A DNA stretch of 64,000 nt. Source: Patescibacteria group bacterium (lineage in GTDB: Bacteria; Patescibacteriota; Microgenomatia; UBA1400; PJMF01). Where the stretch lies: contig JAHDXH010000001.1 in assembly GCA_023382875.1 (NCBI GenBank), positions 18,571 through 82,570 of the forward strand. Direction: 5' to 3'. Under the pieces are notes generated by a model. That model was not told the DNA's origin, did not search any database, and was given only the letters and a program-made list of their open reading frames with translations. A program made the position numbers and the translations under genes. Shown in pieces: positions 5,338 to 37,566 of this stretch. The first letter of the stretch is position 1. Each line of letters starts with the position of its first letter.

Positions 5338-5410
5338 TGATCCCGTGTCAGGATTCGAACCTAAGATAACTGATTCAGAGTCAGTTGTGATGCCACTTCA
5401 CTACACGGGA
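5338..5410 (-). tRNA. tRNA-Gln (anticodon CUG)
   Basis: Minus-strand read TCCCGTG-TA-GTGA-AGTGGCA-TCAC-A-ACTGA-CTCTGAA-TCAGT-TATC-TTAGGTTCGAATCCTGA-CACGGGA-T. Cloverleaf with 7-bp acceptor (U1-A72, as in bacterial tRNA-Gln), anticodon loop CT-CTG-AA and T-loop GGTTCGAATCC. CCA is not encoded. Confidence 0.7.
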
Positions 5411-11430: not shown

Positions 11431-11638
11431 ATGTGTGTCTTTTATATGTAAAAGATACATTGAAAAAGGCAGTTCCTTAAAATATCCGAAGAATTTATTT
11501 TTTTGTTTTTGTGGTCACACTGAGTGTTTTTCTGTTAAATCATTTAACAGTCGAATATTGAGTGTGGCCTCAAAACCACCGTGGCCTGGCCACGTCTCGC
11601 TAAACCTCAATTTTCAATGAAAGGTCAAGGGTAAGACA

Positions 11639-12535
11639 ATGGCAGCAGCACAGAATGTTTCTTCGGAAAAACGTGAAAGTTTCGATTTCGGCAAGTTCGT
11701 GTCGGATGTGGTCAGCAAGCTCCCCGCCCGTGATAAGGTGGCGGCTCGTCTCAACAAGATTGACCTCGTTCTGACCCCCTTCTACGCAGTGCTGATGGCA
11801 TGGGCAACCTACGCCATTGGTATCAATTTTCTTCGCTTCGGTCCTACCGACGTGGAGAGCCTGAACTATTTCGTCAGCCTGTACGCTGGACTGAGCCTCG
11901 TTGCCTTCGCTATCGTTCTGGTCGCCCTCTTCGAGAGTGTGCGCCGCAATGAAATCGGAGACATGGCGAAAGTCATCGCAGCCATCGCTATCAATTATGT
12001 GGCGATGCGTTACAACGGTACATGGCTTATGATGGTGCTGGCGTATGGCTTCGGCTTCTCGCTGGCGCACTCTGCATCCCGGAACGGTAAGTTAGACTGG
12101 ACACCGTTGGTCGCGTTCAACGCTTCCTTCATCGGTCTGGCGACCCAGATTTTTGGTTTCGCCGCCGCGTCCGTAGTCTGGCCCGTGCTGGTGGGTGTCG
12201 TGTTTCAGGCAGTAGAAGTTTTCCGCAATCAGGATTACCGCGCCGTAAGGCTGGCGGTGCCGGGGATGGTTATTGCTGTTCTCGGTCTGGTCTTGACCAT
12301 GAATCCCGTGCTGTGGATTTTGCTGGGGGCTTTGGTCAGCTTCGTTGTCGCTCCAACCGCGTTCAAGCTCTATGAGAGCAAGCACGCGAAACTGGAAGAT
12401 ACGGTCAAAAGCTGTGCCACTCCCTGCGCCGATTTCGACAATGGCATGAAGAACCTGCGGACAAACGCTGAAGCAGCAATGCTGACGCTCGTTTCGTCCT
12501 GCCTGTTTATCATCGTCATGGTCATGTTCTCGTAA
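11639..12535 (+). CDS. hypothetical 7-TM membrane protein encoded in a GC-rich island (codon usage unlike its neighbours)
   Basis: 298 aa and strongly hydrophobic. GC-rich third codon positions (ctg, gcc, ttc, cgc). No recognisable family. Confidence 0.5.
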   Translation: MAAAQNVSSEKRESFDFGKFVSDVVSKLPARDKVAARLNKIDLVLTPFYAVLMAWATYAIGINFLRFGPTDVESLNYFVSLYAGLSLVAFAIVLVALFESVRRNEIGDMAKVIAAIAINYVAMRYNGTWLMMVLAYGFGFSLAHSASRNGKLDWTPLVAFNASFIGLATQIFGFAAASVVWPVLVGVVFQAVEVFRNQDYRAVRLAVPGMVIAVLGLVLTMNPVLWILLGALVSFVVAPTAFKLYESKHAKLEDTVKSCATPCADFDNGMKNLRTNAEAAMLTLVSSCLFIIVMVMFS

Positions 12536-12559
12536 TGACTTTCACGGTCAACACAACGT

Positions 12560-12590
12560 AGGGCGCCTTCAAAGCGCCCTCGTTCTGTAT
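12560..12590 (+). terminator. intrinsic terminator-like hairpin AGGGCGC-cttcaaa-GCGCCCT followed by a T-rich tract
   Basis: Perfect 7-bp GC-rich stem at 12560-12580, then cgttctgtattt. Confidence 0.5.
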
Positions 12591-12602
12591 TTAGAGACAA
12601 AT

Positions 12603-15600
12603 TTATTGAATTTTTACCTGACTATTGATGAAGTGGAAGTGGTCCAAAACAGTTTTTGTTTCTGGCAACACTCCTTTGACAATGAAATCGTTGCCAAATA
12701 ACTTTGGTAACAAATCATTTTCTTTGGAGAATAAACTCTCTTTGAACATCATTTTTGCTTCAACTGAGCCAATCCACAATGCCTTATAGGGATTATTTTC
12801 TACCACTACATTACTAAGGTTTTCCTTAGTCAAAATGTTTTTGAATTGCTCTGGAACCTGTTGTGGTTTTTGATCCAAAGTTTCAGCATTGATTTGGTAG
12901 AAAAGTTTACCCTTTTTATCAGGTCCAACGGTGGCTGATAAATCAGCTTCTTGGTTGATTAAAGCTAAAGTTGAACTATTCACAAAATGGAAATTATCAA
13001 CCATTGAGTTGGTGGGTTTGAGAATTCCTACGACTTTGACTTTTGGCAAGCCAAAAAAATTATTCAACTCGTCCCCCACTTTGTTAATTAATTTTTCTTC
13101 AATCATCATTTGCGCTTCATTGGCACCGATGATAATTTCGTTGTCATTTAAGTTTCCTTGACCTTGGTTGAATGGCAAGCTGATTAACTCTTCTTTTTCG
13201 ACCGCCAAAAATAGTTTTGGTGCTTTATCTAAGTAAGTTATTTTGCCTTGTGAATAAGCAAAAATTTGATTAGCCGCTTTGGTAATTTTAGGATTAACAA
13301 CAGCACTACTCATTTCACTACTATTCATTTGACTACTAAATTTGGCAAATTCCACAAACATTAAACTGAAAACAACAATCATGATGATTGGTGCGACCAT
13401 AGATATATAGTTTTTGCGGTTTGGCTTGTATAAGCGCAAGAGTAATGAGTTGGCCACTACTGAGACAGAACTTAATGCCATGGCTAATCCAGCTAATTCT
13501 GGTTTAAGCACTAATCCAAAGGCAACAAAGAGTCTGGCGGCAATTGGAATACCCATGACGTTATACAAAAGGGCAAAGAATAAGTTTTGTTTAATTTTGC
13601 CAATCGTTTCTTTTGACAAGTTGATGGCGTGAACAACATCATTAAGATCATTTTTAATAATGACAATGCCACCTGTCTCCATGGCTACGTCGGTGCCTGA
13701 GCCCATAGCGATACCTAGCTCGGCTTGAGCTAATGCTGGCGCGTCGTTAACGCCATCACCTACCATGGCTACTATATGTCCTTGCGATTGAAGTTTTTTT
13801 ACTTCATTGACTTTATCTTTTGGTAAGACTTCTGCTAATACATTGGTGATGCCGACTTGTTTGGCGATCGCTTCTGCTGTTCTTTTGTTATCACCGGTAA
13901 TCATATAAATGGCTAAGCCCATTTTTTGAAGTTTTTCGATGGCTGCTTTTGAGTTTGGTTTGACGGTATCGGCAACAGCGATTAAACCTTCAATTTGTTT
14001 TTTGTTGGCCAAAATCATGACGGTTTTGCCTTGATTTTCCAGTTCATGAATTTGAGCATCAATTTCTTTGGTTGAATGTTTGAGGTATTCAGCAATCAAT
14101 TTTTTATTACCAAAATAATAAGTTTGATTATCGATTTTGGCAGTGACACCATGGCCAACAATTGCTTCAAAATCAGAAACTTTTTTGAGATCTAATTTTA
14201 AGCTTTGAGTTTTTTGATAAATGGCTTCAGCCAATGGATGCTCAGATTGTTTTTCTAAACTCCCAACAATAGTTAAGAGTTGTTTTTCATCTATTTTTTC
14301 TAAACTGATGACATCGGTAACACTGGGTTTACCAACAGTAATGGTGCCAGTTTTATCAAAAATGACAGCCGTAATTTTGCAAGCTTGTTCAAGTGGTTCA
14401 CCACCTTTGACTAGAATGCCATGTTCAGCACCTTTGCCCGTGCCAACCATAATGGCCGTAGGCGTAGCTAATCCCAATGCACATGGACAGGCAATAACGA
14501 TGACAGCTGTAAAAGCCATCAATGCTGTTGATAAGGTTGCACCTAAAACAAAGAACCAAACCACAAAAGTAAGAATGGCGATGATAATAACAGCCGGAAC
14601 AAACCAAGCAGAAATTCGATCGGCCAAATCTTGAATTGGTGCTTTGGAGCCTTGGGCTTCTTCAACTAATTTAATGATTTGTGCCAAGGTAGTTTCACTA
14701 CCAACTCTCGTGGCGGTGAATTCAAAACTACCAGTTTTGTTGATGGTGCCACCAGCAACTTTGTCGCCGGCCTGTTTGGCTACCGGTAAACTTTCGCCGG
14801 TCAACATTGATTCATCGACTGACGATGAGCCTTTGGTAATTTTGCCATCGACAGGAATTTTTTCTCCCGGTCTAACCAAAATTACATCGCCAACTTTAAC
14901 TTCATCGATCGGAATATCTGTAGTTTTATTGCCTCTCACAACTCTAGCTGTTTTTGCTTGAAGTCCCATTAGTTTTTTAATGGCAGTTGAAGTTTTACCT
15001 TTGGCTTTAGCTTCCAAAAGTTTTCCCAAAATCACGAACGTGATTAGGAAAGCAGCGGTTTCAAAATATAGTTCGGGAATTTTTGCGCCTTCAATACCAA
15101 TAACCGATTCAGTGATAAAAGCATAACGAAGGAAATTGAATAAGCTATAAAAATAGGCCACCGAAGTGCCAATAGCAATCAAACTATCCATGTTAAAAGT
15201 TTTCATCCGTAAGGCAGACCACATGCCTTGGTAGAAACTTTTACCAACAATGAATTGAATTGGGGTAGTAAGGATTAAAGAAATAATGCCTACATAGGGC
15301 AAAAGCAGTTTAGCGCCAAAAAAGTTGGGCACAAAATCAAAAATCATGAAGTAAGCCATGGGCAAACTCAAAATCAAACTAAAGATAAATTTTTGCAGTT
15401 GGTTTTTTTCTTCGTGATGGTGATGGTGAGCTGAGTCAGCTTCAATTTGTTGAACGTTGTCACCTAGTTCCTGTGCATGGTAACCAGCTTTTTTGACAGC
15501 CTCAATAATCGTTTCTGAGTTGGTGTCATTTTCTGCCACAACCTGCGCTTTTTCATTAGCATAATTAACATGCGCTTCTTTAACTCCAGGAACTTTTTTA

Positions 15601-15674
15601 ATTGAAAGTTCAACTAGACTGGCACATGAAGCACAGTGCATACCGTGAATTGCATAGCGTTTGGTTGCTGGCAT
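12603..15674 (-). CDS. copA: copper-translocating P1B-type ATPase (CopA-like) with an extra C-terminal TM helix and a roughly 270-aa MacB/FtsX-like extracytoplasmic domain
   Basis: N-terminal [15 protein letters not shown]. His-rich AHHHHHEE. Ion-binding CPC in ACPCALG. Phosphorylation [13 protein letters not shown]. After the last canonical TM (..LLLRLYKP) the ORF continues for about 275 aa with one more TM and a soluble domain carrying two repeats ([20 protein letters not shown] and [20 protein letters not shown]). Confidence 0.85.
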
Positions 15675-15699: not shown

Positions 15700-17121
15700 T
15701 TAATTTGTGACTTCGATAATGCCGGTGGCCATACCCATCCAGCAGCTAAAACGAAACTTGCCGGTTTTGGTTGGGGTAAAAGTTTTAACAGAAGTTTGAC
15801 CAGGACTCAGTCTAATTTCCCCGTCAAAGAAGTCTTTGGCAATCACGGCATTAGTACAGCCGGAAGCACCATTGTCGGTAATTCTCCACTCCACCGGTTG
15901 GTTAACTTTGACTTTAATGTAGTCTGGTTCGTAACCACCGGCGGTAGCGGACATTTCGACGATTTGTTTTTCACCTGCCTGTGTTGGACTGGTGAAAGTT
16001 GAATCTTGTTTGCTATTAATGAAATAGGCTGAGAAGTTTGGCCAACCTAAAACATTAAAAGCAGAATTGATATTAAAAAGTGAGAACAAAATGATAAGTA
16101 AACCAGCGACTTGTGAGAAAAATCTAGTGACGTGGGGTCGTTTATTAAACATTAAGCTAGACAAGCCGATGAATAACAAAATTGGTGCAGTACCTAAGGC
16201 AAAAGCTAACATGATCAGGGCGCCGCGGATGGGGTCGCCAGACAGTAGTGCGATTCCTTGAGTGGTGATGGTAAAACCACATGGTAGTAGAACGGTGCCG
16301 GCGCCCATCAAAGCAGGCATTAACCGACCAGAAAAGTTTCTTTGATCAGCAAGGTTGCGAGTCAAAACTTTTGGTAGTTTTGGTTGGAATTTATTGGCCC
16401 ACTCTACTCCCAACATTTGCAAAGATAAGACCACCATCAAAATAGAAACAAAAATTGTGATTAGAGCAGAAAAGGAAATAGAAATTTGGAAAACATTTCC
16501 TAATGATCCCAAAAGAAATCCTACTAAAGTGTAAGAAACTAGTCTGCCTAAATTAAATAAAATTTGTGGTTGAAGTTTTTCTGTCAGACTATTGGAAGTT
16601 TGATAGAGTTCAGCCCATTGTTTTGACATTGATAAAACAATTCCGCCAACTAAAGCTGAGCAGGTGGAAAAACCAGCAATTACACCAAAGGCGATAAATG
16701 CAAACAGTGAAGATTCGGCATTTACACTAAGTGCAATTGCTCCTGAGCTAGAAAATTTCAAAAAAGCACCAAAAATAATTGCCACAATAGTGAGGGCTGG
16801 CAACAACTGCAGCATTCGACTAAAGTTCCAAATGATTTCTCCATCACTTGTGACTTGGAAAAATGGTTCAGCTTTTTGTGTTCTTTCATCTTTAGAATCA
16901 TAAAAAGTGTAACCATCTTTTTTGAATAATTTGTTTAGCTTATTTGGGTTTGGAGCATCTCCGGTAAATTCAATTAAGACTGATTTATCTTTTTGTGAAA
17001 CTTCAACTGATTTAATATTTTCTTTTTCTAGAAGTTTATTTTCAATCAAAAGTTCGCATGATGCGCAGTGCATGCCTTCAACAAAGTACTGTTTTTCTGA
17101 GCAGAGGTTTTTTTCTGACAT
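15700..17121 (-). CDS. HMA-domain membrane permease (DsbD_2/TauE-like multi-TM core) with a C-terminal cupredoxin-like domain. Probable copper binding or transport.
   Basis: N-terminal GMHCASCE metal-binding motif. About 8 TM segments. C-terminal domain KVNQPVEWRITDNGASGCTNAVIAKD...FRFSCWMGM resembles cupredoxin_1-type domains found with heavy-metal transporters. Confidence 0.6.
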   Translation of the reverse strand: MSEKNLCSEKQYFVEGMHCASCELLIENKLLEKENIKSVEVSQKDKSVLIEFTGDAPNPNKLNKLFKKDGYTFYDSKDERTQKAEPFFQVTSDGEIIWNFSRMLQLLPALTIVAIIFGAFLKFSSSGAIALSVNAESSLFAFIAFGVIAGFSTCSALVGGIVLSMSKQWAELYQTSNSLTEKLQPQILFNLGRLVSYTLVGFLLGSLGNVFQISISFSALITIFVSILMVVLSLQMLGVEWANKFQPKLPKVLTRNLADQRNFSGRLMPALMGAGTVLLPCGFTITTQGIALLSGDPIRGALIMLAFALGTAPILLFIGLSSLMFNKRPHVTRFFSQVAGLLIILFSLFNINSAFNVLGWPNFSAYFINSKQDSTFTSPTQAGEKQIVEMSATAGGYEPDYIKVKVNQPVEWRITDNGASGCTNAVIAKDFFDGEIRLSPGQTSVKTFTPTKTGKFRFSCWMGMATGIIEVTN

Positions 17122-17126
17122 GGGAA

Positions 17127-17609
17127 TTAATTGCTGTATTTCTCAGGATTGTCTTTGAATCTGTGCAGGCATCCTTCAGCGCAAAAGTAATAATTAATAT
17201 TTTTATAATTAGTTGAATAACTGGCAATTTTGGGTGAAAGTCTCATGCGGCAAACTGGATCTTGAACGATGGGTAAAAGTTTTTCAAAGTCATCACACAT
17301 GGCTTTGGCGGTTTTTTTGTCAGAAATATCTTTAATCAAAACTTCTCTGATTAAATCAGAGGCTAATAAATAATTGGGATGAGTGATGTGATAGAAAACT
17401 TCTTTGCCTTCTTTTTTGGTACAGACAATTTTGGCTGCACGAAGTATAGAAAGGTGCTGACTCAAATTGGCTTGGGGCAAATTTAACATCTCAATCATTT
17501 GATTGACGTTAACTGTTTGGTCGCGAAGTAAATTAAGAATTTCCAGCCTTTTGGGATTGGCTAGGGCTTTAAGAACGTTGGCGTGAATTTCAAAAATCTG
17601 AGAATACAT
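17127..17609 (-). CDS. ArsR/SmtB-family metal-responsive repressor with a C-terminal TRASH/YHS-type Cys-rich metal-binding domain
   Basis: wHTH LKALANPKRLEILNLLRDQTVNVNQMIEMLNLPQANLSQHLSILRAAKIV. C-terminal PVCRMRL...YFCAEGCLHRFKDNPEKY. Confidence 0.75.
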   Translation of the reverse strand: MYSQIFEIHANVLKALANPKRLEILNLLRDQTVNVNQMIEMLNLPQANLSQHLSILRAAKIVCTKKEGKEVFYHITHPNYLLASDLIREVLIKDISDKKTAKAMCDDFEKLLPIVQDPVCRMRLSPKIASYSTNYKNINYYFCAEGCLHRFKDNPEKYSN

Positions 17610-17635
17610 ATTCGATATATTGAATATATTCTCTT
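17610..17635. promoter_or_regulatory. AT-rich palindromes at the ArsR-like gene start (candidate autoregulatory operator)
   Basis: TATATTgAATATA (13-bp palindrome) overlapping the perfect 10-bp palindrome GAATATATTC, immediately at or upstream of the ATG at 17609. Confidence 0.3.
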
Positions 17636-17721
17636 GTTAATAAAAAAGCAAGGGTGATTTTTTGATCTAGTAATTTGCTGATTCTCCGGTTAAAATAGCG
17701 TTCTTGTTAAGCTAAAGCAAA

Positions 17722-18522
17722 TTGATGACCGAGTTGATCATAACTTTTAGAGAAACTTTAGAAGCCTCATTAATCGTAGGAATCGTTTTAGCATATCTTT
17801 CCCAAACAAATAGACAGTTTTATAACAAAATAGTTTTCTTGGCCGTTGGCGCTGCTTCTTTGCTTAGTGCAATTTTGGCTATTATTTTCAATAATTTTTT
17901 AGGTGGTTTTACTGGCCGCACTGAGGAGATCTTTGAGGGTTTAATCATGATTGCTGCTTCTATTATGGTTTCTACAATTGTGATTTGGATGATGAGGCAA
18001 AGTCATAGTTCAGGGCAGATTAAAAAACAAGTAGATTCTCATCTGGAAAAAAGCCAAGCGTTTGGTTTATTTGGTTTGGTATTTTTATCAGTTTTAAGAG
18101 AAGGTGTAGAGGTGGTTTTGTTCTTGGGAGCCAAAAGTTTGATGAGTACAGAAAATTTTGGCTTTGCCTTATTAGGCATGTTGGTGGCAATTATAATTGG
18201 CTTGCTGATTTTTAAAGTCGGTGTCAAAATTAGCTTGAAACCTTTCTTTATGTTTTCAAGTATTTTTCTTATTTTGTTTGGAGCAGGTTTATTTGCTCAT
18301 GGCATTCACGAATTAGAAGAAGCAAAGCTGGTTAATCCTGTAGTCGAACACGTTTGGGACATTGGTAGATTTTTGAGCGAAAGTAAAGGTTTTGGTTTGT
18401 TCTTGAAAGATATTTTTGGCTATAACGCCAACCCTTCGCTTACGGAAGTTGGCTCTTATATTTTTTATCTTAATGCTCTTTATCTTTATTACCTATTAAT
18501 TAGTAAAAGAACATCACTATGA
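17722..18522 (+). CDS. FTR1/EfeU-family iron (or lead) permease-like membrane protein
   Basis: Two RExxE motifs in TM helices (FRETLEASL near the N-terminus and LREGVEVVLFLGA mid-protein). 266 aa with about 7 TM. Confidence 0.6.
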   Translation: MMTELIITFRETLEASLIVGIVLAYLSQTNRQFYNKIVFLAVGAASLLSAILAIIFNNFLGGFTGRTEEIFEGLIMIAASIMVSTIVIWMMRQSHSSGQIKKQVDSHLEKSQAFGLFGLVFLSVLREGVEVVLFLGAKSLMSTENFGFALLGMLVAIIIGLLIFKVGVKISLKPFFMFSSIFLILFGAGLFAHGIHELEEAKLVNPVVEHVWDIGRFLSESKGFGLFLKDIFGYNANPSLTEVGSYIFYLNALYLYYLLISKRTSL

Positions 18523-19346
18523 ATGATCAAAAAGTTCTTCTTCATGTAGTTTGTGACTATGCCCCAGCTGGCATGGAATTTGGTGAGATTACCACTCGCT
18601 TGGATCACGATTTGGCTAATCCAAGTAACGTGAGAATTCATACAACTTCAGTTCCATCTTTGGATACGATGGCCGTAGGTTTTGTGACCGCGCAATATGC
18701 TTTGGCACCATACAATGGCCGTATGGTTATTTATGGCAACGCTGCTCCTCGCCGTAGTTCTGATAAAGCTACCACCAATAATATTGACCACGGTATTAAA
18801 TACGCTAAATTGAAAAATGGCGTGGAAATTATTAACGTTAACTCAGAATTTGCTTTCGGTTTCATGAAAGATCAGATTGTTGAGTTTTATAACATTGATT
18901 GTCCAAATAGTGGATCTCAGTTCCGCTCTCGTGATTTTTTCCCAGAAAGAGTGGCTAAATTAATCAATGGCGACAGAAGTGTCTTAACTGAAAAACTTAA
19001 TATTGATGATATTCCTGAGGTACCCAATAACTTAGTTGCTTGGACTGACGGTTTTGGTAATATTAAAACCTCCATGAGACTTTCTGATTTGCAAAAACTT
19101 GGTTTTGAATCGGGCGAAAGTGTTCAAGTGATTTTGAACGGTGTTTCTATGGTTGGTGTAGTTGGGGTTGGCGGCTTCAGTGTTGATCGCGGTGTTTTGG
19201 CTGTTAACATCGGCTCTTCTGGTTACGATGATCCATTCATTGAACTCTTCCTTCGTGTTCACCACATTAGTGAACAAGCTGCCGCAGTAAGATTTAATTA
19301 TCCAGAGGGTGGTACGCCATTTGAGCTAAAAAAATTAGCTAGATAA
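18519..19346 (+). CDS. DUF62 family protein (SAM hydroxide adenosyltransferase / halogenase-like fold)
   Basis: Recalled similarity to archaeal DUF62 proteins: HTTSVPSLDTMAVGFVTAQ, GRMVIYGNAAPRR, RDFFPERVAKL, TDGFGNIKTSM and LAVNIGSSG. The ATG overlaps the stop of the FTR1-like gene (ATGA). Confidence 0.5.
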   Translation: MNDQKVLLHVVCDYAPAGMEFGEITTRLDHDLANPSNVRIHTTSVPSLDTMAVGFVTAQYALAPYNGRMVIYGNAAPRRSSDKATTNNIDHGIKYAKLKNGVEIINVNSEFAFGFMKDQIVEFYNIDCPNSGSQFRSRDFFPERVAKLINGDRSVLTEKLNIDDIPEVPNNLVAWTDGFGNIKTSMRLSDLQKLGFESGESVQVILNGVSMVGVVGVGGFSVDRGVLAVNIGSSGYDDPFIELFLRVHHISEQAAAVRFNYPEGGTPFELKKLAR

Positions 19347-37478: not shown

Positions 37479-37566
37479 TGGCGGAGGGGGCGGGATTCGA
37501 ACCCGCGGCAGCTTTCACCGCGGCGGTTTAGTAAACCGCTGCACTAGGCCACTATGCGACCCCTCC
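37479..37566 (-). tRNA. class II (long variable arm) tRNA, Ser-type, with anticodon loop TT-ACT-AA (apparent anticodon ACU)
   Basis: Minus-strand read GGAGGGG-TC-GCA-TAGTGGCCTAG-TGC-A-GCGGT-TTACTAA-ACCGC-[16-nt variable arm]-GCGGGTTCGAATCCCGC-CCCCTCC-G-CCA. Perfect acceptor and T stems, CCA encoded. One nucleotide away from a canonical tRNA-Ser(GCU) loop. Confidence 0.7.

Follow-up and report, generated by a model that had tools for sequence, protein, structure and literature searches.

A CopA-type copper ATPase of a Patescibacteria bacterium extended by a ninth transmembrane helix and a tandem Sabre-like domain predicted to be extracytoplasmic

In the P1B pumps known to date, the chain stays in the cytoplasm once M6 has been passed, and any terminal extension is a metal-binding domain in the cytosol (PMC11970713, PMC7558416). 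In the window analyzed here (i.e., a 64,000-nucleotide stretch of DNA from a Patescibacteria group bacterium), a copA-like reading frame continues in frame past residue 747 for another 276 residues (12603-13433, coordinates verified), which raises the question of whether a copper pump can carry a domain on the other side of the membrane and what such a domain might do there. A sequence-only reading of the window had described this extension as one extra transmembrane (TM) helix, followed by a MacB/FtsX-like domain outside the cytoplasm with an internal DxFHF repeat, which could serve in metal hand-off or sensing for the adjacent HMA-permease-cupredoxin protein. The features of the locus are listed in Table 1.

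Table 1. Features of the cop locus, with positions counted from the first letter of the window
Feature	Residues	Position	Strand	Evidence or remark
ArsR-type HTH regulator with C-terminal YHS metal-binding domain, first gene of the cluster	160 aa	17127..17609	-	PF01022 2.6e-11, PF04945 1.3e-14
Partner gene: HMA, DsbD_2 membrane domain and extracytoplasmic cupredoxin	473 aa	15700..17121	-	Pfam; 25 nt upstream of copA
CopA-TM-tandem ectodomain fusion gene	1023 aa	12603..15674	-	Uninterrupted single ORF; stop codon 12603-12605
Complete P1B-1 Cu+ ATPase core	1-747	13434..15674	-	TIGR01511, TIGR01525, motifs, hydropathy, AF2 helices
Cytoplasmic N-terminal HMA metal-binding domain, CASC motif	7-66	15477..15656	-	PF00403, E 1.3e-16
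Extra (ninth) TM helix	754-782	13329..13415	-	KD 2.48; flank charges; AF2 helix
Juxtamembrane Ser/Met-rich linker	783-794	13293..13328	-	Predicted flexible; low pLDDT
Ectodomain repeat 1, Sabre-like alpha/beta module	795-905	12960..13292	-	BLASTP, domain model, HHalign
Repeat 1 E-A-x-M-M motif, EAQMM	853-857	13104..13118	-	Family: E 94%, A 90%, M 88%, M857 97%
Repeat 1 T-x-[TS]-x-x-D-x-x-H motif, TNSMVDNFH	888-896	12987..13013	-	T 97%, D893 99%, H896 93%
Ectodomain repeat 2, second copy of the module	906-1023	12606..12959	-	BLASTP, domain model, HHalign
Repeat 2 E-A-x-M-M motif, EAKMM	972-976	12747..12761	-	E 93%, A 95%, M 70%, M976 96%
Repeat 2 T-x-T-x-x-D-x-x-H motif, TKTVLDHFH	1006-1014	12633..12659	-	T 92%, D1011 100%, H1014 90%
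GC-rich hairpin AGGGCGCC-TTCAA-AGCGCCCT		12560..12580	.	23 nt past the copA stop, between convergent gene ends

Judged by its sequence, the part of the protein encompassing residues 1-747 is a full copper pump of the P1B-1 (CopA) type. The Pfam scan recovered the HMA, E1-E2_ATPase and Hydrolase domains (PF00122, E 1.5e-64; PF00702, E 4.4e-38), and the catalytic motifs are present as TGE292 in the actuator, DKTGT440 at the phosphorylation site and GDGVND639 in the hinge. The signature of the transmembrane Cu+ site is also complete (CPC396 in M4, YN704 in M5 and MALSS732, an MxxSS motif, in M6), and a run of five histidines (HHHHH) is found at residue 83, after the HMA domain. Eight canonical TM helices were located by hydropathy and in the AF2 model. 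The protein scored 633.3 bits against TIGR01511 (cutoff 397), with an alignment reaching residue 747, and 674.8 bits against TIGR01525 (cutoff 346); the equivalog model for E. coli CopA, NF007952, remained below its cutoff in the NCBIfam scan (673.9 vs 1316 bits). The hairpin behind the gene is terminator-like and would close the cop operon, and the gene end thus appears to be real.

The rule that P1B ATPases have eight TM helices and two cytoplasmic termini is broken by the ninth helix at residues 754-782, which begins only 6 residues after M6. Its hydropathy is the highest peak after M3/M4, its flanks carry a charge of +4 on the cytoplasmic side and 0 outside, and the full-length AF2 model has a helix at 756-790 with a pLDDT of about 83-85. 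Because there is a single extra TM helix with a positive-inside charge bias, the C-terminus and the ectodomain are predicted to be extracytoplasmic, as the sequence-only reading had argued. The linker that follows has a pLDDT below 50, at 787-792 in the full-length AF2 model and at 38-42 in the domain model, which suits a tethered acceptor more than a rigid mechanical coupler. Among 63 linkers of the family, 52 carry at least one Met and 29 at least two. The full-length model, with a pTM of 0.69, gave no confident inter-domain docking of the ectodomain on the pump.

The soluble ectodomain (residues 795-1023) consists of 229 residues with 0 Cys, 3 His and 5 Met. The duplication seen earlier around DxFHF is real and well beyond chance, with the two copies aligned by BLASTP at 43% identity over 54 aa (E 2e-11). 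Its unit is much larger than the 20-residue stretch first quoted; at the level of HHalign profiles (probability 99.9%, E 9.5e-34, 95 columns), an entire module of approximately 100 residues that includes DxFHF occurs twice in tandem. In the domain model, both repeats are built from one main helix and seven strands each. Conservation of the motifs was counted over about 150 representatives that are mutually less than 50% identical, and the motifs of both repeats were found to be near-invariant, as at M857, D893 and H896 in repeat 1 and M976, D1011 and H1014 in repeat 2, with the frequencies given in Table 1. The conserved His is replaced by Tyr in 3-6% of the representatives and the conserved Met by Leu, Ile or Val in 1-6%, substitutions that make these positions look more structural than ligand. 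Cys accounts for 0.02% of the residues in the ectodomain family (108 of 111 modules have none), as compared to 0.84% in the ATPase part, and this near-absence fits a location outside the cytoplasm, where Met and His serve as the ligands of Cu(I) sites. With only 3 His and 5 Met, the ectodomain is not a Met/His-rich sponge, and the extension did not match any of the known copper-binding families (CusF, CopC/PcoC, cupredoxin, DUF1541/CopL, YHS and HMA) in Pfam, in NCBIfam or in the PDB profile searches. Metal binding by the conserved His residues of the ectodomain is nevertheless plausible.

With regard to the origin of this module, the MacB-like part of the sequence-only reading was borne out to a limited extent and the FtsX-like part was not. 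The Pfam match to MacB_PCD (PF12704) or FtsX (PF02687) that had been expected was absent from the extension in the window (E <= 1), from 15 family members (E <= 10) and from further members, and the NCBIfam scan of the extension matched no family. Searches of the PDB were equally negative, as the two-repeat profile found unrelated proteins at best (E 0.14) with no MacB or Lol entry, and the single-repeat profile had 0 matches at E <= 10. On the other hand, the top 17 Foldseek hits (best E 4.4e-4) pointed to a Sabre-type alpha/beta fold of the ectodomain. A weak HHalign match of the repeat profile to a 5-sequence profile of the periplasmic core domain (P 1.3e-4) mapped to residues 382-443 of E. 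coli MacB, which lie in the Sabre subdomain, and withstood a shuffle control (score 29.5 observed vs a shuffled maximum of 18.3). This signal arose only with the 5-sequence profile; against the single periplasmic sequences of E. coli MacB, LolC and LolE the best P was 0.065, which is not significant, and in a forced global alignment to LolE the motifs run parallel, without statistical support. The module and MacB Sabre have a common register (…EG…vIIG..A…L…GD.i…V.GIL…), and each repeat aligns over about 100-125 residues, approximately half of the MacB periplasmic domain, which fits the Sabre part. FtsX lacks a Sabre subdomain, its ectodomain being Porter-only (PMC5985334), and FtsX ectodomains were missing from the lists of fold matches; the label "FtsX-like" is thus wrong. 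Indirect evidence further suggests that the ectodomain is without a Porter subdomain (i.e., two beta-alpha-beta motifs flanking Sabre) and without the two-stalk insertion topology, as one TM helix adjoins it, none follows it and the ORF ends at residue 1023. The fused protein has neither a 4-TM FtsX permease nor an ABC ATPase, the attached motor being a P-type ATPase, and no MacB-type permease was found among the ten scanned ORFs of the window. The phmmer matches in the window were to ABC ATPase domains only.

A survey of the family, with representatives taken at 50% identity, retrieved 196 sequences, and for 175 of these E was below 1e-10. Its consensus is a module of about 100 residues (EAxMM ... 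GD ... FFG ... GIL.xTxTxxDxxH), usually duplicated and preceded by a TM anchor, and the protein in the window aligns to the family profile over its full length (positions 2-225). The sequence-only reading had suggested that related CopA genes be surveyed for the same extension or a separate gene, and both forms were found. In 66 of 80 species-representative genomes the module lies within the CopA ORF; in 8, all archaeal, it is a separate TM-anchored gene adjoining CopA, predicted to encode a type II single-pass membrane protein, and at the remaining 6 the contig breaks off within the locus. CopA was present at every informative locus, and four further loci (L003, L005, L006 and L007) are also CopA-associated. 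The tandem Sabre-like ectodomain is, on these sequence comparisons, a new family of CPR and DPANN that is unannotated and unnamed, and it appears to be confined to ultra-small CPR bacteria and DPANN archaea. Since the module is exclusively coupled to CopA, copper pumps probably have in it a partner on the exit side that is new. Literature searches found no earlier CopA with an extracytoplasmic C-terminal domain and nothing relevant on copper ATPases in CPR.

This distribution also bears on whether the fusion is genuine. CopA could have become merged with a separate downstream gene through a frameshift, an overlooked stop codon or chimeric assembly, and the module is truly a separate gene beside copA in some archaea and on some metagenome contigs. 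However, the in-frame junction (...SLLL..KP.+KN..S..AP..M...F) recurs in dozens of independent metagenome assemblies at 33-47% identity, it is also kept in high-GC and UGA-recoded lineages, and in the fused forms no separate N-terminal cytoplasmic segment or start codon context is seen. Taken together with the predominance of the fused form among the species representatives, the conservation of this junction leaves an artefact with next to no probability, and this explanation was rejected as refuted for practical purposes; the fusion noted earlier is genuine.

The genes around copA show a similar association. Of 55 informative fused loci, 48 have a DsbD_2 gene immediately upstream of copA and in the same orientation, with a cupredoxin in the same ORF in 40, which upholds the previously noted link to the adjacent HMA-permease-cupredoxin gene. 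Cupredoxin genes were found at 41 of the 55 fused loci and at all 8 split loci; 14 of the 55 had no cupredoxin within 6 kb and 4 had no DsbD_2. The regulators vary, with an ArsR-YHS gene at 7 of 55 related loci and CsoR at L006.

The explanation that we favor, with confidence evenly balanced for and against it, is that the ectodomain is tethered on the exit side of the pump and accepts Cu(I) there or hands it off. The chain would run past M6 into the ninth TM helix and then into paired Sabre-like modules on the outer face of the membrane, which a short, flexible, Met-bearing linker would hold beside the pump exit. Cu(I) leaving the pump would be taken up by Met, His, Asp and Glu of the EAxMM and TxTxxDxxH motifs and/or by the Met-rich linker, which may stop its re-entry or damage to the envelope in a cell without an outer membrane, and the ion would then be freed or passed to the cupredoxin domain of the co-transcribed HMA-DsbD_2-cupredoxin protein. 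As the module of DPANN archaea is encoded separately beside copA, it would work there as a type II membrane protein and a subunit of the pump. A precedent is found in E. coli, where CopA passes Cu(I) directly to the extracytoplasmic chaperone CusF (PMC7558416). The complete pump, the ninth helix, the flexible, Met-rich linker, the Cys-free ectodomain, the conserved motifs, the coupling to CopA and the co-occurrence of cupredoxins count in favor of an acceptor. Counting against it are the missing match to any copper family, the Tyr, Leu, Ile and Val substitutions, the scarcity of His and Met, the lack of confident docking (pTM 0.69) and the fact that related Sabre subdomains in MacB and LolC bind proteins or substrates rather than metals (PMC5985334). 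What is established here is how the protein is built, its topology with the domain outside (as a prediction), its fold and duplication, a genomic association with CopA alone and the conservation of the motifs; contact of the ectodomain with the pump exit, copper binding and hand-off to a cupredoxin are inferred. A more far-reaching version, in which the ectodomain is an obligate extracytoplasmic component of CPR/DPANN copper pumps, fused in bacteria and separate and beta-subunit-like in archaea, derived from the Sabre domain of MacB-type transporters, with a new Met/His/Asp copper site that receives Cu(I) at the pump exit and feeds the partner cupredoxin, is put forward tentatively and is rather doubtful.

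It is unlikely, but deserves serious weight, that the ectodomain is a structural or regulatory subunit that binds no metal, like the beta-subunit of the Na,K-ATPase, KdpC or the CDC50 proteins of P4-ATPases. Such a subunit could keep the membrane-embedded pump stable, act as a shield or gate at the exit funnel or adjust the rate of turnover, with the motifs representing residues of the fold or of an interface. The split archaeal form, a single-pass protein beside the pump as in known P-type ATPase subunits, would be consistent with this, as would the tolerance of His to Tyr and Met to Leu/Ile substitutions in a minority of sequences, the low content of His and Met and a motif register that is common to the non-metal-binding Sabre domains of MacB and LolE. 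By contrast, the invariance of Asp (99-100%) and of Met, in place of just any hydrophobic residue (96-97%), among sequences less than 50% identical exceeds what positions with a purely structural role normally show, the predictions for the linker indicate flexibility and not docking, and ordinary eight-TM CopA pumps function without such a subunit (PMC7558416, PMC11970713). An improbable explanation is that the module serves docking and maturation, not detoxification, and recruits a cupredoxin, either that of the HMA-DsbD_2-cupredoxin protein or one of the separate archaeal cupredoxins, to the pump exit for metallation, in the role of CopA2/CcoI-type pumps. CopA2-type pumps for cuproprotein assembly do exist (PMC7558416), and the Sabre subdomains of LolC and MacB are protein-docking surfaces (PMC5985334); the tight two-gene cassette and the cupredoxin genes at every split archaeal locus also point in this direction. 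The loci without cupredoxin or DsbD_2 do not, and the ArsR-YHS regulator here, CsoR at L006 and the CopZ-like HMA genes resemble a detoxification operon.

Mechanotransmission in the manner of MacB is highly improbable. In this reading, the ninth helix would relay the E1/E2 motion of M5/M6 to the Sabre-like ectodomain, which would perform mechanical work outside the membrane (e.g., driving copper or another substrate from the wall zone). Even though mechanotransmitting type VII ABC transporters have periplasmic domains of a related fold and the ninth helix follows M6 almost immediately, a Porter subdomain and a pair of rigid stalk helices, which are considered intrinsic to that mechanism (PMC5985334), appear to be absent here. 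In addition, the domain hangs on one helix by a linker with a pLDDT below 50, and the archaeal module is a separate polypeptide, for which rigid coupling to M6 is impossible. On these three grounds, mechanotransmission was given little weight.

The exit of Cu(I) from a P1B pump and its receiver outside represent one of the less settled steps in copper export, for which soluble CusF in E. coli is the only well-documented acceptor. The locus described here offers a candidate acceptor that is covalently tied to the pump exit, along with a split archaeal version for comparison, and with the fused natural construct and the split form the exit step would become directly testable. It also places an unannotated family, with about 200 clusters at 50% identity, in a genomic context and points to its likely role, and it suggests reuse of the MacB-type Sabre fold beyond ABC systems, in a protein that departs from the textbook P1B topology. 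If the far-reaching version above held, no P1B ATPase would have been known before with a built-in metallochaperone on its exit side or with an accessory subunit.

Comparison with known systems places the pump itself among the P1B-1 CopA proteins of Legionella pneumophila, Archaeoglobus fulgidus and E. coli, with which residues 1-747 have all signatures in common (an HMA domain with CxxC, TGE, CPC in M4, DKTGT, YN in M5, MxxSS in M6 and eight TM helices). Unlike these pumps, the fused CopA has a ninth helix and a 229-residue extracytoplasmic domain. The Sabre domains of the type VII transporters MacB, LolC/LolE, YknZ, YbbP, HrtB and YtrF are likewise extracytoplasmic and preceded by a TM helix; the module differs from them in being present as two tandem copies, in being terminal without a return to the membrane rather than inserted between TM1 and TM2 of an FtsX-type permease, and in having its own invariant EAxMM and TxTxxDxxH motifs.

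As a proposed extracytoplasmic Cu(I) acceptor at the exit of CopA with Met/His ligands, the module resembles E. coli CusF (PMC7558416). CusF, by contrast, is soluble, has an OB fold and supplies CusCBA in diderm bacteria, and the module is unrelated to it in fold and sequence, is fused or membrane-anchored and occurs in lineages without Cus systems. CopL, from the copBL operon of Staphylococcus aureus, belongs with other copper-binding proteins that monoderm bacteria anchor in the membrane at their surface; it is encoded in one operon with a copper P1B ATPase and is a surface-exposed lipoprotein of DUF1541 domains that is not fused to the pump. The module is similarly membrane-anchored, predicted to be surface-exposed and encoded with a copper P1B ATPase; unlike CopL, it has no match to DUF1541 or any other Pfam family and is fused to its pump. 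The beta-subunit of the Na,K-ATPase, KdpC and CDC50 are single-pass accessory subunits of other P-type ATPases, and no subunit of this kind has been described for P1B pumps in the literature examined. These proteins have no tie to the module in sequence or fold (no Pfam match, and none among the fold matches), yet the archaeal split form is like them in being a type II membrane protein that bears an ectodomain and whose gene lies beside that of its pump.

The copA-module gene is a single unbroken ORF of 1023 aa, whose first 747 residues make up an entire copper P1B ATPase. NCBIfam TIGR01511 (copper-translocating P-type ATPase) matched with 633 bits (cutoff 397), in an alignment reaching residue 747, and the frame continues for 276 further codons, at the position where the sequence-only reading had placed a complete CopA followed by about 275 in-frame residues. 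The transcription unit ends at a GC-rich hairpin, which lies between convergent genes 23 nt beyond the copA stop codon. The convergent gene encodes a 298-aa polytopic membrane protein without a significant Pfam match; three ORFs that overlap it on the minus strand (11600-12070, 12092-12385 and 12370-12600) look spurious.

Features of the copA-module gene, its product and the surrounding region (nt, window positions; aa, residues of the window protein)
Feature	Location	Strand	Basis or remark
ArsR-type regulator + YHS domain	nt 17127-17609	-	first of three co-directional genes; Pfam
HMA-DsbD_2-cupredoxin membrane protein	nt 15700-17121	-	second gene, upstream of copA-module; Pfam
copA-module	nt 12603..15674	-	last of three co-directional genes
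Codons past the CopA core	nt 12603-13433	-	276 codons
HMA domain	aa 7-66		Pfam domain scan
E1-E2_ATPase	aa 238-418		Pfam domain scan
HAD hydrolase domain	aa 434-651		Pfam domain scan
P1B-1 Cu+/Ag+ signature	TGE292, CPC396, DKTGT440, GDGVND639, YN704, MALSS732		motif scan
Ninth TM helix	aa 754-782		hydropathy
Ser/Met-rich linker	aa 783-794		
Module 1	aa 795-905		E853 94%, A854 90%, M856 88%, M857 97%, T888 97%, D893 99%, H896 93% (conservation, ~150 representatives)
Module 2	aa 906-1023		E972 93%, A973 95%, M975 70%, M976 96%, T1006 92%, D1011 100%, H1014 90% (conservation, ~150 representatives)
GC-rich hairpin	nt 12560-12580		
298-aa polytopic membrane protein	nt 11639-12535	+	
FTR1-family iron permease	nt 17722-18522	+	E 6.5e-47
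275-aa ORF	nt 18519-19346	+	overlaps FTR1 gene; no Pfam match
tRNA gene	nt 5340-5410	-	Rfam gathering score
tRNA gene	nt 37482-37566	-	Rfam gathering score

Hydropathy analysis revealed a single additional strong TM segment, with a net charge of +4 over the 15 residues before it and 0 over the 15 residues after it. Given eight canonical helices, a cytoplasmic N-terminus and one extra helix, the C-terminal 241 residues are predicted to be extracytoplasmic, as had been proposed earlier. The 276-aa extension was modeled by AF2 with a mean pLDDT of 92 and a pTM of 0.80, each module consisting of a main helix, some short ones and about seven strands. When the whole protein was modeled (pLDDT 87.5, pTM 0.69), the ninth helix was predicted with confidence (~83-85) and the linker fell below 50 at residues 787-792; the ectodomain is thus well folded and sits on a low-confidence, probably flexible tether.

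This ectodomain had been likened to the MacB/FtsX periplasmic domain, with a Pfam MacB_PCD or FtsX match expected. Pfam and NCBIfam contained no curated family for the window extension, none of 15 family members had a Pfam match at E <= 10, and neither the two-repeat nor the single-repeat alignment gave a PDB sequence-profile match. The fold, by contrast, was clear: the top 17 Foldseek matches formed one group, type VII ABC periplasmic domains with a Sabre-type fold (best E 4.4e-4), and the alignments spanned one module, about as long as the Sabre subdomain of A. actinomycetemcomitans MacB (~119 residues, 347-465; PMC5985334). FtsX, which has the Porter subdomain and lacks Sabre (PMC5985334), was not among the fold matches. 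HHalign comparison of module profiles with a profile of five type VII permeases (E. coli MacB, LolC and LolE, and two from CPR/DPANN loci) gave weak, consistent matches in one register throughout (P 1.3e-4 to 1e-3, probability 20-54%, 51-63 columns). The match covered residues 382-443 of E. coli MacB, between Porter strands ~310-315 and ~468-476, and scored 29.5, compared to 10.5 +/- 2.1 (maximum 18.3) for 60 column-shuffled controls. Judging from these alignments and the predicted fold, we regard each module as remotely related to the Sabre subdomain. Unlike the MacB family, however, the window protein appears to have no Porter subdomain or stalk helix pair, its ectodomain is not set between TM1 and TM2 of a four-TM FtsX permease, and there is no ABC ATPase. 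Since it shares the Sabre fold and differs in profile, topology and partner, the window protein is not a MacB_PCD member and is probably derived from that family; the MacB likeness thus holds for the Sabre-like fold and is not supported for the remaining parts, including FtsX.

The two halves of the ectodomain aligned over 54 residues by BLASTP (43% identity, E 2e-11), and their family profiles over 95 columns by HHalign (probability 99.9%, E 9.5e-34). By this alignment, the 20-residue DxFHF repeat noted previously is the tail of a far larger duplication, so that the duplication stands and its extent is revised. Common to both modules among ~150 representatives with <50% mutual identity are E-A-x-M-M and T-x-T-x-x-D-x-x-H; structural Gly/Phe positions and one GD loop are also conserved. 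Cys accounts for 0.02% of the family ectodomain (none in 108 of 111 modules) versus 0.84% of the ATPase parts. The 22 residues past the TM anchor are enriched in Met (6.4%), with at least one Met in 52 of 63 family linkers and at least two in 29 of 63, often as SSxMxxxxM. A few fused proteins (at loci L072, L080, L082 and L086, and protein P0157) carry a single module, indicating that one module is a viable unit. The metagenomic fused homologue P0147 has a further ~265-aa C-terminal domain beyond the tandem module (residues ~374-638), with His/Met-containing stretches (…VMHTHPMTE…) and no Pfam match; this could be one more metal-binding domain outside the cytoplasm.

Used by itself as the query, the extension returned 14 proteins at E <= 0.001 (JGI, ENA, Logan and NCBI metagenomes), six of which (P0001-P0004, P0008 and P0009) show the last CopA helices followed by the same helix and domain at 33-45% identity. 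Exhaustive profile searching extended the family to 196 representatives at 50% identity (E < 1e-10 in 175), with full-length fusions of 954-1125 aa in low-GC, high-GC and UGA-recoded lineages. When 80 loci from species-representative genomes were surveyed, counting as fused a module and ATPase in one stop-to-stop ORF, 66 were fused, 8 had a separate gene in the same-strand cluster of the ATPase gene, and 6 were cut by contig ends and uninformative; the survey of related copA genes proposed earlier therefore favors the shared ORF. No informative locus lacked CopA. This rules out that the architecture arose from a frameshift or a chimeric join. Some fused genes (loci L055, L060, L061, L063, L067, L076, L079, L081 and L085, and proteins P0060 and P0112) are open only if UGA encodes an amino acid (table 25), and database translations give Trp at conserved Gly (e.g., WDWINDSPAL); the fusion is thus also found in Gracilibacteria/Absconditabacteria-type recoded lineages, and these particular public sequences are mistranslated.

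All 8 split loci are labelled archaeal (Woesearchaeota and unclassified archaea). Their stand-alone module has its own N-terminal anchor and is encoded beside the ATPase gene or parted from it by a small HMA gene alone. Its gene either immediately precedes a CopZ-like HMA gene and copA or immediately follows copA, with cupredoxin genes on the same strand. At L005 a 741-aa CopA precedes the module, on a contig that also has eIF-6, and at L007 the copA stop overlaps the module gene start; L003 and L006 have HMA-DsbD_2 neighbours. L006 (5770-8372 of a Patescibacteria MAG) has a CopA called at 716 aa, with no Pfam match on record, and, 80 nt past it, a 123-aa single-module gene without a TM anchor (P0036); here a fused gene may have been disrupted recently, or the frame may have been miscalled.

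The upstream neighbour in the window encodes a 473-aa protein with a cytoplasmic HMA domain, a six-helix DsbD_2-type membrane domain and a C-terminal cupredoxin (Cupredoxin_1), which may serve as a copper or electron conduit and is a conserved partner of the fused CopA. Among 55 fused loci with sufficient upstream sequence, a DsbD_2-type gene was present in 51 and directly upstream on the same strand in 48, bearing out the suggested link to this neighbour; in 40 of the 55 a cupredoxin shared the DsbD_2 ORF. The ArsR-family HTH with a C-terminal YHS (TRASH-like) metal-binding domain is unusual in its architecture and a candidate repressor that senses copper; 7 of 55 related loci have it, and L006 has a CsoR-type regulator in its place. 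Divergent from the cop cluster, the FTR1 gene and its overlapping ORF may form another unit for metal transport that has the intergenic control region 17610-17721 in common with the cluster. The 64-kb window contains two tRNA genes and no rRNA, with a GC content of 33-42% throughout.

Hosts, as labelled, are DPANN archaea and many CPR/Patescibacteria lineages (among them Parcubacteria, Saccharibacteria, Peregrinibacteria, Gracilibacteria, Absconditabacteria/SR1, Microgenomates, Berkelbacteria, Falkowbacteria, Doudnabacteria and Moranbacteria). Some TPA MAGs with a fused gene of the CPR/DPANN type bear such labels as Pseudomonadales, Gammaproteobacteria, Bdellovibrionales, Actinomycetota or Methanosarcinales (L011-L014, L016, L028, L036, L042, L045, L047, L058, L072, L080, L084 and L086); either these labels are wrong or the host range is wider than apparent.

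E. coli CopA passes Cu(I) to the extracytoplasmic chaperone CusF rather than simply releasing it (PMC7558416). The ectodomain family is coupled to CopA exclusively, is predicted to lie outside, lacks Cys, has invariant Met/Asp/His/Glu positions, and is joined by a probably flexible tether whose Met-bearing linker lies at the membrane surface. Together these features suggest a tethered exit-side copper-handling module, which would contact the pump exit, take Cu(I) from the pump, and then release it or pass it to the partner cupredoxin; we give this reading about an even chance of being correct. The analysis establishes the architecture, predicted topology, fold, duplication, conservation and gene linkage, while exit contact, metal binding and transfer are inferred. 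Counting against it are the replacement of the conserved His by Tyr in 3-6% of representatives and of the conserved Met by Leu/Ile/Val in 1-6%, the presence of only 3 His and 5 Met in the window ectodomain, and the binding of proteins or organic substrates by Sabre domains elsewhere (PMC5985334). By analogy with the Na,K-ATPase beta-subunit, KdpC or CDC50, the ectodomain could instead be a stabilising or gating subunit that binds no metal, a rather unlikely reading. A docking device for cupredoxin metallation would be improbable. MacB-style mechanotransmission would draw on the Sabre relationship, but the predicted flexibility of the linker, the apparent lack of Porter and stalk, and the existence of a split form in archaea count against it and leave it very little chance of being right.

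Every database name seen for family members was 'hypothetical protein', and no description of the module family, or of a P1B ATPase with an extracytoplasmic C-terminal domain, was found in the literature. The architecture is real, unannotated, and widespread in two major uncultivated radiations; the observation made in the sequence-only reading is confirmed and its interpretation partly supported. While we infer the mechanism, fused CopA gives natural access to the step at which copper leaves such pumps, which is poorly understood. We see in the protein a known pump joined to an accessory ectodomain whose family is lineage-restricted and had not been described before. No known family of extracytoplasmic copper proteins matches its extension. 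P1B pumps are eight-helix proteins whose terminal domains lie in the cytosol (PMC11970713, PMC7558416); by comparison, the window protein has every catalytic and metal-site feature of P1B-1 ATPases but departs from their eight-helix topology.
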